Shown piece by piece: positions 2,139-36,753 of a stretch of DNA of 64,000 nucleotides (positions are counted from its first letter, which is position 1; the number at the start of each line of letters is the position of its first letter). The notes beneath the pieces are model-generated. The model searched no databases. It was not told the DNA's origin and saw nothing but the letters and a program-made list of their open reading frames with translations. This DNA is from an uncultured Pelagibacteraceae bacterium (GTDB lineage Bacteria; Pseudomonadota; Alphaproteobacteria; Pelagibacterales; Pelagibacteraceae). Position numbers and translations under genes: made by a program. Location of the stretch: NCBI GenBank assembly GCA_902577525.1, contig CACGZG010000002.1:19222-83221 (forward strand), in the 5' to 3' direction.

Positions 2139-3349
2139 TGAGAAGAGTCGTAATTACGGGATTAGGAGTAGTGTCCTGTTTAGGGAACAATCAAGATGAG
2201 GTTCGTCAATCATTATTAAATTCAAAATCAGGAATTTCATTTGCTGAGGAATACAAAGAACATAACTTAAAAAGTCATGTACATGGCAAACCTAATATAA
2301 AACTTGAAGATCATATAGATAGAAAAACAATAAGGTTTATGGGTTCAGGTTCTGCATATAATTACATAGCAATGAAAGAGGCAATTAAAGATTCTGGCCT
2401 AGAGGAAAAAGAAGTAAGTAATTTTAAAACTGGAATAGTTATGGGTTCAGGAGGGCCTTCAATTGAAAATGTAATTTTAGCAGCAGATAAAACAAGAGCA
2501 AAAACTCCAAAATTAATGGGGCCTTTTATCGTTCCAAGAACTATGGCAAGTACTGCATCTGCAACTTTAGCTGTTCCATTTAAAATTAAGGGGACTAACT
2601 ATACAATGAGTTCTGCGTGCGCTACTAGTGGCCACTGTATTGGTAATTCAATGGAATTAATTCAAATGGGAAAACAAGATATTATTTTTGCTGGGGGTAG
2701 TGAAGAAATACACTGGGCTATGACTGCTATGTTTGATGCAATGACTGCATTGTCGTCTAAATATAATGAAACTCCTGAAACAGCCTCTAGAGCATATGAT
2801 AAAACAAGAGATGGATTTGTGATTGCAGGAGGAGCTGGGGTTTTAGTGCTTGAAGAATATGAACATGCTAAAGCTAGAGGAGCTAAGATATACGCAGAGT
2901 TGACCGGTTATGGAGCGACCTCAGATGGATATGACATGGTCGCACCATCAGGTGAAGGGGCTGTAAGATGTATGAAAATGGCTATAGCAACTGCCAAAAA
3001 TAAAATTGATTATATAAATACTCATGGAACATCTACTCCTGTTGGAGATATTACAGAACTAAATGCTGTCAAAGAAACATTTGGATCTAATATTCCAAAA
3101 ATAAGTTCAACAAAATCTTTATCAGGTCATCCGTTAGGTGCCGCTTCAGTTCATGAAGCTATTTATTGTTTAATTATGATGAAAAATAATTTTATTGCTG
3201 GATCAGCGAATATTAATGAAATGGATGAAGAAGCTAAAAAATTTCCAATAGTTGCAAAAACAGAAACTGGAGTTACATTAAATACGATTATGTCTAATAG
3301 TTTTGGTTTTGGTGGAACTAATGCTGCTTTAATTTTTGAAAAGGTTTAG
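2138..3349 (+). CDS. fabB: 3-oxoacyl-ACP synthase I
   Basis: SACATSGH catalytic Cys, [21 protein letters not shown]. Confidence 0.95.
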
Positions 3350-33295: not shown

Positions 33296-34224
33296 TGAAA
33301 ATTTTGGGAATTGGAAATGCAATTGTAGATGTTATTTGTAAAGTTGATGATGATTTTATATCAAAAAAAAAACTTACAAAGGGATCAATGAAACTAATAT
33401 TTGATGAAATTGAATTTAAAGAACTATTTACCAATTTAACCATCGAAAAAACAATTTCTGGAGGATCTGTAGCAAATTCAATAGTAGGTTTGTCTCAACT
33501 TGAAAATAATGTTGGTTTTATAGGGAAAATATCTGATGATGAATTTGGTCTTAAGTATGAAGATGGTTTAAAGAGGGAAAATGTAAATTTTCTATACTCT
33601 AAAAAAAAAGAATTATTACCAACTGGTAGCTGTTTAATTTTAATTACCCCAGACTCTGAGAGAACTATGTGTACATTTCTAGGGACTGCTGGTAAGATTA
33701 ATAAAGACGACTTAGACATTAAATCACTAAAAAAAAGTGAAATTATTTTTCTTGAAGGATATTTGTGGGATGAAGGTGACCCAAAACAAGCCTTTGATAA
33801 AGCAATTATTCATGGAAAAAGAGTGGCAATGTCTTTATCTGACCAATTTTGTGTTGACAGGCATAAACCTCACTTTTTAGAGTTGGTTAAGAATAAACTT
33901 GATATAATTTTTGCAAATGAAGGTGAAATCATGTCATTAATTAATGCTAAAAATTTTGATGAGGTTCTCTCTTTTGGTAAGCAAATTAATAAACATTTAG
34001 TAATTACTAGAGGTGATAAGGGAGCTATATCTGTCTATAATGAACAAGTGGTTGAAGTTGGTATTAAGAAAAATCTCAATGTTGTTGATTTAACAGGGGC
34101 AGGGGATTTATTTGCAGCAGGTTATCTGCATGGGTATATCAACGATTTTTCCCAAAAAGAATGCTTGGAAAAAGGAACAGAATTATCATCTATAATAATT
34201 CAAAAAATGGGAGCAAGAATTTAA
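33292..34224 (+). CDS. PfkB-family (adenosine-kinase-like) sugar/nucleoside kinase
   Basis: GIGNAIVD, GGSVANS, ERTM, DLTGAGDLFAAG. Confidence 0.9.
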   Translation: MMKILGIGNAIVDVICKVDDDFISKKKLTKGSMKLIFDEIEFKELFTNLTIEKTISGGSVANSIVGLSQLENNVGFIGKISDDEFGLKYEDGLKRENVNFLYSKKKELLPTGSCLILITPDSERTMCTFLGTAGKINKDDLDIKSLKKSEIIFLEGYLWDEGDPKQAFDKAIIHGKRVAMSLSDQFCVDRHKPHFLELVKNKLDIIFANEGEIMSLINAKNFDEVLSFGKQINKHLVITRGDKGAISVYNEQVVEVGIKKNLNVVDLTGAGDLFAAGYLHGYINDFSQKECLEKGTELSSIIIQKMGARI

Positions 34225-34916
34225 TGAGAGTAATTAATATTTTTCCACTTTCAATTTTTTGCAACAAAATCGTTCTTTCAAATGATAAAAAAGATCAAAT
34301 GATAAGTGAAATTAGAAAGATGAGGGATAATTCCAAAAAAGCAGATTATAAAAAAAAAGGTGATGCTTGGACAGGTGATACACAAGGATTTGAAAATTTA
34401 CAAAAAAATATAATTTTTGATGAATTTTTTTTAGAAGTAAAAAAAAATATTAATGAATATCTAGAACAATTAGCCATTGATATTGATCAATTAGATATCT
34501 TTATACAAAGATCGTGGGCAACTATTTCACACGGAAACGAAACAATAGCTAAACATAAACACATGCAATCACATATATCATTTGCGTATTATCTTAAAAA
34601 AAATTCAAATGATGCAAACTTGATGATTCATGATGAAGTTACGAGAAATGAGATAATTCCTGGGTTATTTGGATCTATTTCCTCTTTAAATCGAAAAGTA
34701 TTAAAAAAAATTAATATATTAAATAGTAGTCAAATTACTATTAATGTTAAAGAAGATGATATCGTTTTTTTTCCATCCAAAACACCTCACTCAACTCAAC
34801 CAACAAACAGTAATGAAGAAAGAATTTCCATTTCAGCTGACATTGTTTGTATAGCTAAAAACTCAGAAACACTTGAACATTTAACACCACCATATGATAA
34901 TTGGAAAAAAATTTAG
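34224..34916 (+). CDS. Putative 2OG-Fe(II) oxygenase-like protein (TIGR02466-type)
   Basis: SWA...HKHMQSHISFAYY...FFPSKTPH...RISIS; likely start MRVINIF overlapping the upstream stop. Confidence 0.7.
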   Translation: MRVINIFPLSIFCNKIVLSNDKKDQMISEIRKMRDNSKKADYKKKGDAWTGDTQGFENLQKNIIFDEFFLEVKKNINEYLEQLAIDIDQLDIFIQRSWATISHGNETIAKHKHMQSHISFAYYLKKNSNDANLMIHDEVTRNEIIPGLFGSISSLNRKVLKKINILNSSQITINVKEDDIVFFPSKTPHSTQPTNSNEERISISADIVCIAKNSETLEHLTPPYDNWKKI

Positions 34917-34925
34917 GTAATAAAA

Positions 34926-35045
34926 TTATTTTTTCTTTCTTTTAAAACTTCCTTTCCCTTTTTTAGGTTTAATAACTCTTTGTTGAAATTTTTTTGAAAA
35001 AAGATTTCGTGCAATTTTATTTCTTTTGATTAATTTGGTAGCCAT
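34926..35045 (-). CDS. arfA: ArfA-like alternative ribosome rescue factor (39 aa), absent from the ORF track
   Basis: Manual translation MATKLIKRNKIARNLFSKKFQQRVIKPKKGKGSFKRKKK*. Matches the ArfA core F-x-QRV-x-K-x-KKGKGS-aromatic-x-RK. Confidence 0.8.
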   Translation of the reverse strand: MATKLIKRNKIARNLFSKKFQQRVIKPKKGKGSFKRKKK

Positions 35046-35589
35046 ATTTTGTGCTTATTATAAAATTTTCGTCGTTAAATTTTTTTTTAATTTTTTTTCT
35101 TAATCTATGAATATGAGTCTCAACAGTATGTGTCTCTAGTTTAGACTGATAACTCCATACGCTTTCTTGTAATTCTTTAATAGTAATTGGCTTATCTTTT
35201 TTTTTTAAATAAATAATTGTATTTATCTCTTTTTCTGTAACATCAAGTTTATCGTTATTTTTCATTAATATTCTTGAGTTGATATCAATAAAGTAGTTTC
35301 CAACTTGAATATGAGATTGTTTGTTAAATTTCTTTTTTAAAAACTCAATATTAATTTTTTCAATAAGATTTGAAAACTTAATAGGAAAATCATTGAAAAT
35401 TAACTTGTTAGTATTTTTCAATCTATCGTTATTTACTAAAATTATATAATCATCAAATTTGTTAAAATCAAAATTTGAAAAATCTTTTTTAGATACATTT
35501 ATTAAGTTAAAATTTAAAAATTCATTTAATTCATTTAAAATGTCATAAAGAGCTTGTGAGTCATAAATCACTAAATTTTGATTTTTCAT
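35017..35589 (-). CDS. OmpR/PhoB winged-helix regulator, CenR-like, with degenerate receiver
   Basis: TEKE...VWSYQSKLETHTVETHIHRLRKKI...GY effector domain; N-terminus short and lacking the canonical Asp/Lys receiver residues. Confidence 0.8.
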   Translation of the reverse strand: MKNQNLVIYDSQALYDILNELNEFLNFNLINVSKKDFSNFDFNKFDDYIILVNNDRLKNTNKLIFNDFPIKFSNLIEKINIEFLKKKFNKQSHIQVGNYFIDINSRILMKNNDKLDVTEKEINTIIYLKKKDKPITIKELQESVWSYQSKLETHTVETHIHRLRKKIKKKFNDENFIISTKYGYQINQKK

Positions 35590-36097
35590 GTATAATTATT
35601 TTATGATAATAGTTTTAAAAAATAAACATATTCTTAAATTAGACGACTTTGAATTAAAGTGTTCTATTGGCAAAAAAGGTATTACAAAAAATAAAATAGA
35701 AGGTGATAAAAAAACACCTAAAGGCATTTTTGAATTAGGTCCACTTTTTTACAGAAAAGACAGAATCAAAAAACCTTTTACAAAAATTAAAAGTTTTATA
35801 ATAAAAAAAAATATGGGTTGGTGTGATGATATTAAAGATAAAAAAAATTATAATAAATTAATTAATATAAAGAAAAAGATGCATCATGAAAAACTTTATA
35901 GAAAAGACATGAAATATGATCTTATATTATTAATAAAATATAATTTTAATAAAAATATTGTTGGGAGAGGGAGTTGTATTTTTTTACATTTAACCAATAA
36001 CTATCAACCTACAGCTGGATGCATTGCTCTTAAAAAAAAAGATTTTTTGATAATGCTAAAATTATTAAATAAAAAATCTAAAATAAAAATTTCTTAG
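35588..36097 (+). CDS. L,D-transpeptidase (YkuD) family protein
   Basis: EGDKKTPKG, GWCDD, IFLH...PTAGCIAL; start may be the ATG at 35603. Confidence 0.85.
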   Translation: MYNYFMIIVLKNKHILKLDDFELKCSIGKKGITKNKIEGDKKTPKGIFELGPLFYRKDRIKKPFTKIKSFIIKKNMGWCDDIKDKKNYNKLINIKKKMHHEKLYRKDMKYDLILLIKYNFNKNIVGRGSCIFLHLTNNYQPTAGCIALKKKDFLIMLKLLNKKSKIKIS

Positions 36098-36753
36098 CTT
36101 CGTTGTCCAAATATATTTGAACCAATTCTCAAAAAAGTAGAAGAATTTTCGACTGCCTCAATAAAATCTGAGGACATCCCCATACTCAATTCAGACAATT
36201 GTAAATGATCATTTAATTTTTTTAACTCTTTAAAAAAAGGTACGGGATTAACATTATTAGGAGGTAAGCACATTAAACCAACAATATCTAAATTAAGTTT
36301 TTGACAATAAAAATGAAAGTTTTCCAATTCTTTTTGATTTAAACCAGATTTTTGGGTTTCATCTCCAATATTTACTTGGATAAATAATTTAATCTTTTTT
36401 TTTTGTTTTTCTTGTTCGTCTGCAATTTTTTTTGCAAGTTTTTCATTATCTACAGAATGGATATAGTCAAATAACTTTACAGCAAATTTAACTTTATTAG
36501 TTTGTAGTTTACCAATTAGATGTAATTTAATATCAGGTTTTTTTAACTTAATTTCAGACCACTTTTCAATAGCTTCTTGTACTTTGTTTTCTCCATAATC
36601 TAAATGCCCATGCTCAATTAAAGGTAAAATTTTTTCTAATTTAAATGTTTTGGAAACTGCAATAATTCTTGGTTGTTTTGGTAAGTTTAAACTCTCTTTT
36701 TTAGATTTTACAAGTTTTTCAATTTGTATTAATTTTTCTATTGAATTATGCAT
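36094..36753 (-). CDS. yggS: PLP homeostasis protein YggS
   Basis: IAVSK, YGENKVQE, HLIGKLQTNK, LSMGMSSD; likely start MHNSIEK at 36753. Confidence 0.93.
   Translation of the reverse strand: MHNSIEKLIQIEKLVKSKKESLNLPKQPRIIAVSKTFKLEKILPLIEHGHLDYGENKVQEAIEKWSEIKLKKPDIKLHLIGKLQTNKVKFAVKLFDYIHSVDNEKLAKKIADEQEKQKKKIKLFIQVNIGDETQKSGLNQKELENFHFYCQKLNLDIVGLMCLPPNNVNPVPFFKELKKLNDHLQLSELSMGMSSDFIEAVENSSTFLRIGSNIFGQRS

Follow-up and report, generated by a model that had tools for sequence, protein, structure and literature searches.

Can a frame of only 39 codons in a SAR11 genome encode a ribosome-rescue factor of the ArfA family, and how would such a factor be expressed if its gene ends at an ordinary stop codon? 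SAR11 are the most abundant marine bacteria, and the locus that raises this question lies in a stretch of 64,000 nucleotides (nt) from an uncultured Pelagibacteraceae bacterium (GenBank assembly GCA_902577525.1, contig CACGZG010000002.1, positions 19,222 to 83,221 of the forward strand), which we call the window. The open reading frame (ORF), MATKLIKRNKIARNLFSKKFQQRVIKPKKGKGSFKRKKK, occupies 34926..35045 on the minus strand and was identified from the ORF list, Pfam and BLASTP; it comprises an ATG start, 39 amino acids and a TAA stop. A reading of the window made from the letters alone (hereafter the sequence-only reading) had proposed it as a minimal ArfA starting 29 nt inside an upstream regulator gene, and its coordinates, ATG and TAA were all confirmed. 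Reviews and a survey have limited ArfA to some beta- and gammaproteobacteria, with the survey adding the Bacillus subtilis group (PMC11633108, PMC8012679, PMC4235212); that survey, published in 2024 and conducted at the nucleotide level on 15,259 genomes, recorded ArfA in none of 2,376 Alphaproteobacteria (PMC11633108). Because these sources place no ArfA in the Alphaproteobacteria, SAR11 has been thought to rely on transfer-messenger RNA (tmRNA) alone. Here we find that the 39-residue peptide truly belongs to the ArfA family, in a streamlined form, and that its stop-terminated, hairpin-less design holds consistently across the lineage and is no peculiarity of one genome.

Family membership was established by profile and pairwise comparisons. 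The Pfam ArfA model PF03889 matched the ORF at 33.2 bits, above the curated gathering cut-off of 25.5 bits (E = 3.5e-8, profile positions 9–42 of 44), and at 32.5 bits in a six-frame search of the genome, so the family assignment offered by the sequence-only reading stands. Among 14 control genomes, E. coli alone exceeded the PF03889 cut-off, which indicates that lysine-rich composition by itself gives no ArfA matches. A search of all PDB chains with the peptide returned ArfA chains only, and no NCBIfam model matched it. BLASTP against the E. coli K-12 protein produced an ungapped alignment with 19 of 34 identical positions (56%; residues 6–39 against 11–44), in agreement with the ungapped match given by the sequence-only reading. 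The substitution flagged there was also present, with Arg13 opposite E. coli Ala18 and the nearest alanine, Ala12, opposite Glu17.

Identical and conserved positions are spread over both halves of the peptide. The N-terminal segment IKRNKIARNLFSKKFQQRVI (residues 6–25; 34971..35030, minus strand) is equivalent to E. coli residues 11–30, and within it N9, I11, L15, F20, R23 and V24 pair without gaps with E. coli N14, I16, L20, F25, R28 and V29. The C-terminal segment KPKKGKGSFKRKKK (residues 26–39; 34929..34970, minus strand), in which nine of 14 residues are basic, is equivalent to E. coli 31–44. It includes the stretch KKGKGSFKRK (residues 28–37), whose core is the same as E. coli 33–38, and the invariant KGKGS core at 34947–34961 on the minus strand. 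Across 27 SAR11 sequences, K29, G30, K31, G32, S33 and R36 do not vary, and neither do N9, A12 and L15. Homology over 34 shared residues cannot prove that the biochemistry is the same.

The frame is conserved as a protein. In 30 SAR11 loci, codon-position entropy summed to 14.2, 9.6 and 31.2 for the first, second and third positions, respectively, the third being by far the most variable, and the ratio of nonsynonymous to synonymous differences (pN/pS) in the arfA frame averaged about 0.22 at a pS of about 0.71, which is near saturation. Given this third-position excess and low pN/pS, the arfA frame codes for protein and evolves under purifying selection, and what the sequence-only reading had proposed from a single genome is kept across the Pelagibacteraceae. 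Using a 42-amino-acid open frame as the query instead of the 39-amino-acid ORF, we retrieved 595 homologues from protein collections, mostly 36–49 amino acids in length and with PF03889 precomputed. The identical 39-amino-acid protein was gene-called on 148 contigs (NCBI, JGI and ENA collections), and Pelagibacteraceae proteins already named 'alternative ribosome rescue factor ArfA' include MDA7606260.1 at NCBI and several JGI records.

Searching whole genomes with PF03889, we found a short ArfA (~34–44 amino acids) in 97 of 151 Pelagibacteraceae genomes and in 14 of 19 genera. A profile (A1) built from 27 SAR11 ArfA sequences matched 51 of 61 genomes of the same genus, with matches in 10 of the 11 that were at least 90% complete. 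An alphaproteobacterial sample of 401 genomes contained ten with an arfA match, comprising four Pelagibacteraceae and six genomes from five other families, and 37 of 401 genomes had a match in a phylum-wide sample. Separately, four diverged ArfA-like ORFs (L164–L167) keep the N-terminal KRNPIAKALRTPKFKKKVIK and have lost the GKGS core (...KDKKKYNRKK...); these are located in unrelated genomic contexts.

How the gene ends is the second part of the question. The arfA mRNA that is translated in E. coli is one truncated at a hairpin, through RNase III or premature termination; the protein is normally tmRNA-tagged and degraded, and the rare full-length protein is made unstable by a hydrophobic tail (PMC3989581, PMC8012679). 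In the window, an in-frame TAA (34926..34928, minus strand) follows five codons past KGKGSF, at the position of E. coli His45 in the 'KH' motif. The stop codon lies 4–14 codons past KGKGS[FY] in all 30 SAR11 loci and exactly five codons past it in 20 of them, and the residues beyond the motif (5 here, 4–14 across the 30 loci) are all basic or polar.

For each locus, the best local 50-nt fold in the sequence surrounding and following the KGKGS motif was scored against dinucleotide shuffles; the absence of a hairpin is, in these terms, a prediction from thermodynamic folding. The positive control, E. coli arfA, gave a fold of −28.6 kcal/mol (z = −7.3) inside its 72-amino-acid ORF, which continues for 33 codons past KGKGS[FY]. 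Hairpins of 12–22 base pairs within the ORF (−19 to −38 kcal/mol) were detected in 29 of 30 loci from other Pseudomonadota (L044–L073), where the ORF extends 15–48 codons past the motif. They were also detected in all four non-SAR11 alphaproteobacterial copies (L034, L036, L037 and L040; 21–61 codons past the motif), and the one in L037 is a textbook intrinsic terminator. In contrast, none of the 30 SAR11 loci had a hairpin (best local fold −4 to −14 kcal/mol, mean z = +0.55). At the window locus, a 201-nt fold gave z = +0.53 with no terminator-like site, and an Rfam scan of 33500–36500 returned nothing credible, so that no known RNA element accounts for the region. The earlier observation that translation stops right after the core, with neither tail nor hairpin, thus extends from one locus to 30 of 30.

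The downstream side of the gene is equally compact. A convergent 2OG-Fe(II) oxygenase gene (34161..34916, plus strand; ORF list and Pfam) has its stop only 9 nt away from that of arfA, too close for a dedicated terminator to fit between them. In five other loci (L011, L015, L023, L025 and L033), the arfA stop overlaps the stop of the convergent gene on the palindrome CTAG, and this tail-to-tail overlap is probably what largely accounts for the frequent TAG stop of SAR11 arfA. Reading on in frame past the arfA TAA (34884–34925, minus strand) gives FYYLNFFPIIIWWC and then a stop, a hydrophobic sequence that recalls the degron tail of E. coli ArfA and is most likely a by-product of lying antisense to the lysine- and asparagine-rich end of the convergent gene.

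We consider it probable, from these comparisons of sequence, that SAR11 ArfA is an RF2-dependent backup rescue factor, made at a low constitutive level from a normal stop-ended mRNA and free of feedback through tmRNA. In the E. coli protein, the vacant mRNA tunnel is occupied by residues 31–48 and the A site by residues 21–30, and residues 1–20 become ordered as a mini-domain only once RF2 opens (PMC5378476, PMC8012679). The region of residues 11–30 there orders against RF2 and contacts it and the decoding centre (PMC5378476). The SAR11 peptide spans the equivalents of E. coli residues 6–44 and would act by the same mechanism. Its KPKKGKGSFKRKKK tail would sense, through the empty mRNA tunnel, a ribosome that has stalled at the 3′ terminus of an mRNA without a stop codon, and the N-x-I-A...L...F-Q-Q-R-V part would recruit and activate the cell's RF2, leading to peptide release. 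The gene would be transcribed with its OmpR-type neighbour and translationally coupled to it, giving a continuous low-level product. With a real stop codon, this product should be released untagged, so feedback of the E. coli type through tmRNA would be absent. Continuous low-level production is most likely because the gene has a normal stop, no hairpin or terminator and no degron tail.

The partners that such a factor would need are present in the genome. The window genome's own assembly (90% complete, 28% G+C) encodes SmpB (189.9 bits) and, on contig C26, a permuted two-piece tmRNA with the tag ANESYALAA. It contains exactly two genes with an RF-1 domain, RF1 and RF2, the latter (prfB; L002, contig C1) retaining the programmed +1 frameshift site AAGGAG TAT CTT TGA as well as its SPF and GGQ motifs. 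No ArfB-sized RF-1-domain gene was found, either in this 90%-complete assembly or among a further 60 Pelagibacteraceae genomes (at least 90% complete in nearly all cases). Of the three rescue genes that the sequence-only reading had named as relevant, ssrA and smpB (and with them prfB) are thus present and arfB is not. The absence of ArfB from the Pelagibacteraceae is consistent with the tree of Feaga et al. 2014, in which the rickettsial branch of the Alphaproteobacteria has no ArfB (PMC4235212). Because ArfB is absent, trans-translation would have no backup other than the host copy of ArfA, if it acts as proposed.

Upstream, arfA is closely associated with the regulator gene (35017..35589, minus strand), its probable operon partner. 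This gene encodes a 190-amino-acid winged-helix protein of the OmpR/PhoB type, with a Pfam Trans_reg_C match of 43.3 bits, no receiver-domain match and a short, degenerate N-terminal domain (~85 residues); it looks like a phosphorylation-independent orphan. Its homologues number in the thousands and are ~187 amino acids long, unnamed and matched by PF00486 only. The order yggS, ykuD (L,D-transpeptidase), regulator and arfA is kept in 20 of 30 loci, across genera. In the window, the 3′ end of the regulator gene and the start of arfA overlap by 29 nt in different frames (35017..35045, minus strand). In five loci, the start codon of arfA shares nucleotides with the TGA that ends the regulator, as TTGA in four (L011, L019, L028 and L033) and as CTGA in one (L030), and in seven it lies 0–6 nt downstream of the regulator stop; in the remaining loci, window included, the two genes overlap by 19–34 nt.

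The arfA start codons are often weak, with TTG in eight loci, GTG in one and CTG at the aligned start in two (L030 and L017, the latter with a regulator overlap of ~34 nt). Overlapping start and stop codons together with non-canonical starts suggest coupling by termination and reinitiation; with the conserved adjacency, the arrangement indicates that arfA is co-transcribed and translationally coupled with the regulator, probably at low output. Candidate start sites for a regulator–arfA transcript are two weak promoter matches of sigma-70 type that precede the regulator (35798..35892, minus strand; consensus only), and such matches are no more numerous there than in shuffled sequence. A programmed frameshift fusing regulator and ArfA was rejected on the grounds that gene spacing ranges from −34 to +6 nt among loci. 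In genus g12 (L005, L010, L014 and L029), arfA is located away from the regulator, and a thiamine pyrophosphate (TPP) riboswitch follows 3′ of it, immediately (~7–15 nt) and on the same strand in three of the four loci scanned and at ~1 kb in L010. A conserved G-rich sequence after the g12 arfA was considered as a tmRNA or tRNA and rejected: Aragorn found neither, and Rfam identified it as the TPP riboswitch, which is unrelated.

Relatives of the gene also occur in viruses. A pattern scan of IMG/VR identified at least 178 marine viral contigs with ArfA relatives at 45–69% identity; contigs in this collection can include misclassified host fragments, and several of the loci were verified as phage. 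In L104 (gene at 3001–3099), a T4-like clamp loader and RegA adjoin the arfA-like gene, and L112 has the same order, some of the viral copies lying between these two genes; portal and major head proteins adjoin it in L107 (3001–3117) and an endolysin in L153 (3001–3096). The viral ORFs (L084–L163) range from 33 to 68 amino acids, mostly with a short tail and their own stop codon, and include subtypes with an acidic C-terminal ...EDEDWSGIV tail or with an N-terminal MPGKWDGKSRISNDKYR extension (MPGKWDGKSR...). Among the viral ORFs sampled for folding, an in-ORF hairpin was found in three of three with a long tail and a comparable long perfect stem in none of 15 with a short tail, although one of these (L101) folds more weakly, at −13 kcal/mol, close to its stop. 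Using tblastn against GenBank phages, we obtained no match, for which the short query and low-complexity filter are probably to blame; a 2025 paper annotates gp30 of pelagiphage HTVC027P as ArfA (PMC12753301). Ribosome rescue encoded by phages thus looks common across the ocean, and the abundance of such genes there suggests that phages target this process when they take over the cell.

Several observations weigh against the proposed role of the host gene. First, Ala18 is absent, the position being Arg, Lys or otherwise variable in SAR11. The substitution A18T inactivates E. coli ArfA. However, Ala18 is not found family-wide (its place is taken by Ser in Pseudomonas-type copies, while R, K or A comes after an A17 in other alphaproteobacterial ones), and its loss is therefore a weaker objection than the sequence-only reading had feared. 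All copies of the alphaproteobacterial type, hairpin-bearing ones included, have an invariant Ala at position 17, which suggests subfamily-specific packing. Second, the 'KH' motif (K44–H45) is missing, since the ORF stops at His45 and most SAR11 copies end in ...KRKKK; this motif lies near the tunnel entrance and is shared, as a conserved feature, by ArfA and BrfA (PMC8012679). Third, most SAR11 copies do not have the first ~9 residues of the E. coli N-terminal mini-domain. Fourth, E. coli ArfA 1–47 is active and shorter forms are inactive in the summary of Chadani 2011 given in PMC5378476, and the SAR11 peptide ends at the K44 equivalent, three residues short of that active form.

The gene is also dispensable, as follows from its absence in closed genomes. 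Of 21 near-closed genomes of the genus (99% complete) that were sampled, eight have an arfA match at the Pfam level (E = 4e-5 to 3e-3); matches are clearer in closed genomes of genera g12 and g17. When 13 closed genomes of the same genus without a Pfam match were re-checked, 11 had no match to profile A1 at E ≤ 0.1. In eight closed genomes of the genus that we inspected (seven of these 11 and G023; L168–L175), the regulator stop abuts the convergent gene and there is no arfA. A subclade of the genus thus either lost the gene or never acquired it, and strains without a detectable ArfA would rely on tmRNA alone. Lastly, the mRNA may be truncated by Rho or RNases even where no hairpin is predicted.

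The most credible of the alternatives, and nonetheless an unlikely one, is that the peptide is an ArfA-derived basic ribosome-binding factor that no longer activates RF2 or has another target, for example a ribosome-associated factor, a factor for hibernation or for occupancy of the empty tunnel, or a coupling peptide whose translation tunes the regulator operon. Such a role would suit a peptide that falls short of the smallest E. coli truncation with activity (as summarized in PMC5378476), without the KH motif and Ala18 and with a reduced N-terminal mini-domain, and it would suit both the loss of the GKGS core in the diverged relatives L164–L167 and the loss from many closed genomes with no visible replacement. 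However, N9, A12, L15, F/Y20, R23 and V/I24 are as conserved as the tail, which is unexpected for a tunnel plug; the N-P-x-A pattern recurs in the hairpin-bearing alphaproteobacterial copies, and RF2 is intact.

Likewise unlikely is a true ArfA that is still under tmRNA feedback, its transcript being cut inside the ORF without a hairpin signature. Possible routes are termination by Rho, cleavage of the A-rich 3′ end by RNase E or RNase Y, or a clash with transcription from the convergent gene. Most ArfA would then still come from non-stop mRNA and be tagged, as happens in E. coli. No visible terminator defines the 3′ end of the arfA mRNA, with the convergent stop 9 nt away and CTAG overlaps at other loci, and every experimentally studied ArfA or BrfA gene uses non-stop regulation (PMC3989581, PMC8012679). 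Against this, the stop codon is fixed past the core in 30 of 30 loci and the degron tail is gone, features that would be needless if the stop were never reached, and the SAR11 loci show no structure (mean z = +0.55). Phage copies are built alike, and it is not obvious why a phage would expose its gene to tagging by the host tmRNA.

The abundance of phage copies raises a third possibility, namely a phage-derived passenger gene (moron) captured recently and without function in the host. The IMG/VR relatives, several of them in verified phage contexts, the annotation of HTVC027P gp30 (PMC12753301) and the patchy presence within the genus are all in line with such an origin. We regard it as very unlikely because the gene occupies the same chromosomal site, after yggS, ykuD and the regulator, in many genera and with no mobile-element genes nearby, and because synonymous divergence is deep (pS ~0.71) while the protein is conserved, which implies long vertical residence under selection. 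As for a chance ORF in an A-rich stretch, a G+C content of 28% makes short lysine-rich ORFs easy and NCBIfam gives no match, but the Pfam score above the cut-off, the clean controls, the hundreds of frame-conserving homologues and the low pN/pS effectively refute it and leave it a negligible probability.

What was already known here is the ArfA family and the naming of some of these proteins by annotation pipelines. Our literature search found no paper on an ArfA of the stop-terminated, hairpin-less design or on ArfA in SAR11 hosts, and genes of 35–40 amino acids are of a kind missed by gene callers and nucleotide-level surveys. Most Pelagibacteraceae have a minimal ArfA, with a regulatory logic that would be unlike every studied case. 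A broader proposal, which we hold to be about as likely as not, is that SAR11 and many marine phages share a distinct ArfA class of 33–45 residues, produced constitutively from ordinary stop-ended mRNA and escaping tmRNA feedback. If this were true, phage copies would keep ribosomes free during degradation of host mRNA, and two generalizations would be overturned: that ArfA is confined to beta- and gammaproteobacteria, and that factors of the ArfA/BrfA type are always made from non-stop mRNA. The peptide would also be the smallest natural RF2 activator. In this sense, SAR11 may offer a natural experiment on why ArfA is usually under tmRNA control and on how short an RF2 activator can be. The design would fit genome streamlining, with a regulatory RNA structure replaced by weak, coupled and constitutive expression.

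Among known systems, SAR11 ArfA can be compared with the E. coli protein (YhdL; structures 5MGP, 5MDV, 5U4I and 5H5U), with which it has in common the residues equivalent to N14, I16, L20 and F25 as well as QRV, KKGKGS and RK. The two differ in that E. coli ArfA is encoded by a 72-amino-acid ORF that gives a product of ~55 amino acids, whereas the SAR11 protein has 39 amino acids and its own stop. E. coli ArfA has an RNase III or terminator hairpin and a hydrophobic C-terminal degron, both of which SAR11 ArfA lacks. In the basic region, the SAR11 tail has nine basic residues in 14, compared with seven and a histidine in E. coli residues 31–47. In E. coli K-12 (L043, 3438431–3439130), arfA follows directly downstream of the small transcription-regulator gene zntR, in the same orientation, and the parallel with the SAR11 regulator–arfA pair may be coincidence.

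Other proteobacterial arfA genes are also expressed from non-stop mRNA, according to Schaub et al. 2012 as cited in PMC8012679. The hairpin-bearing alphaproteobacterial copies have the core motifs and the N-terminal N-P-x-A-x-x-L pattern in common with SAR11; these four and 29 of the 30 copies from other Pseudomonadota differ from SAR11 in their in-ORF hairpin or terminator and in continuing for 15–61 codons past the core. Among viruses, HTVC027P gp30 and the other copies have the KPKKGKGS[FY]KR core and N-P-I-A-K N-terminus seen in SAR11, mostly with their own stop and no hairpin. Viral copies differ in being phage-encoded, and some have N- or C-terminal extensions that are not in the host copy.

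Functional parallels extend to unrelated proteins. ArfB (YaeJ), the usual alphaproteobacterial backup, would fill the same niche behind tmRNA and, as in SAR11 ArfA, is encoded by a normal stop-ended mRNA; it differs in having its own GGQ hydrolase domain, which makes RF2 unnecessary, and in being absent from the 61 Pelagibacteraceae genomes, that of the window included. BrfA of Bacillus and ArfT of Francisella are likewise small, basic, tunnel-sensing factors that recruit a class I release factor, and are unrelated in sequence to ArfA. BrfA is also a backup to tmRNA and is made from non-stop mRNA (PMC6881298, PMC8012679), while ArfT can use either RF1 or RF2.

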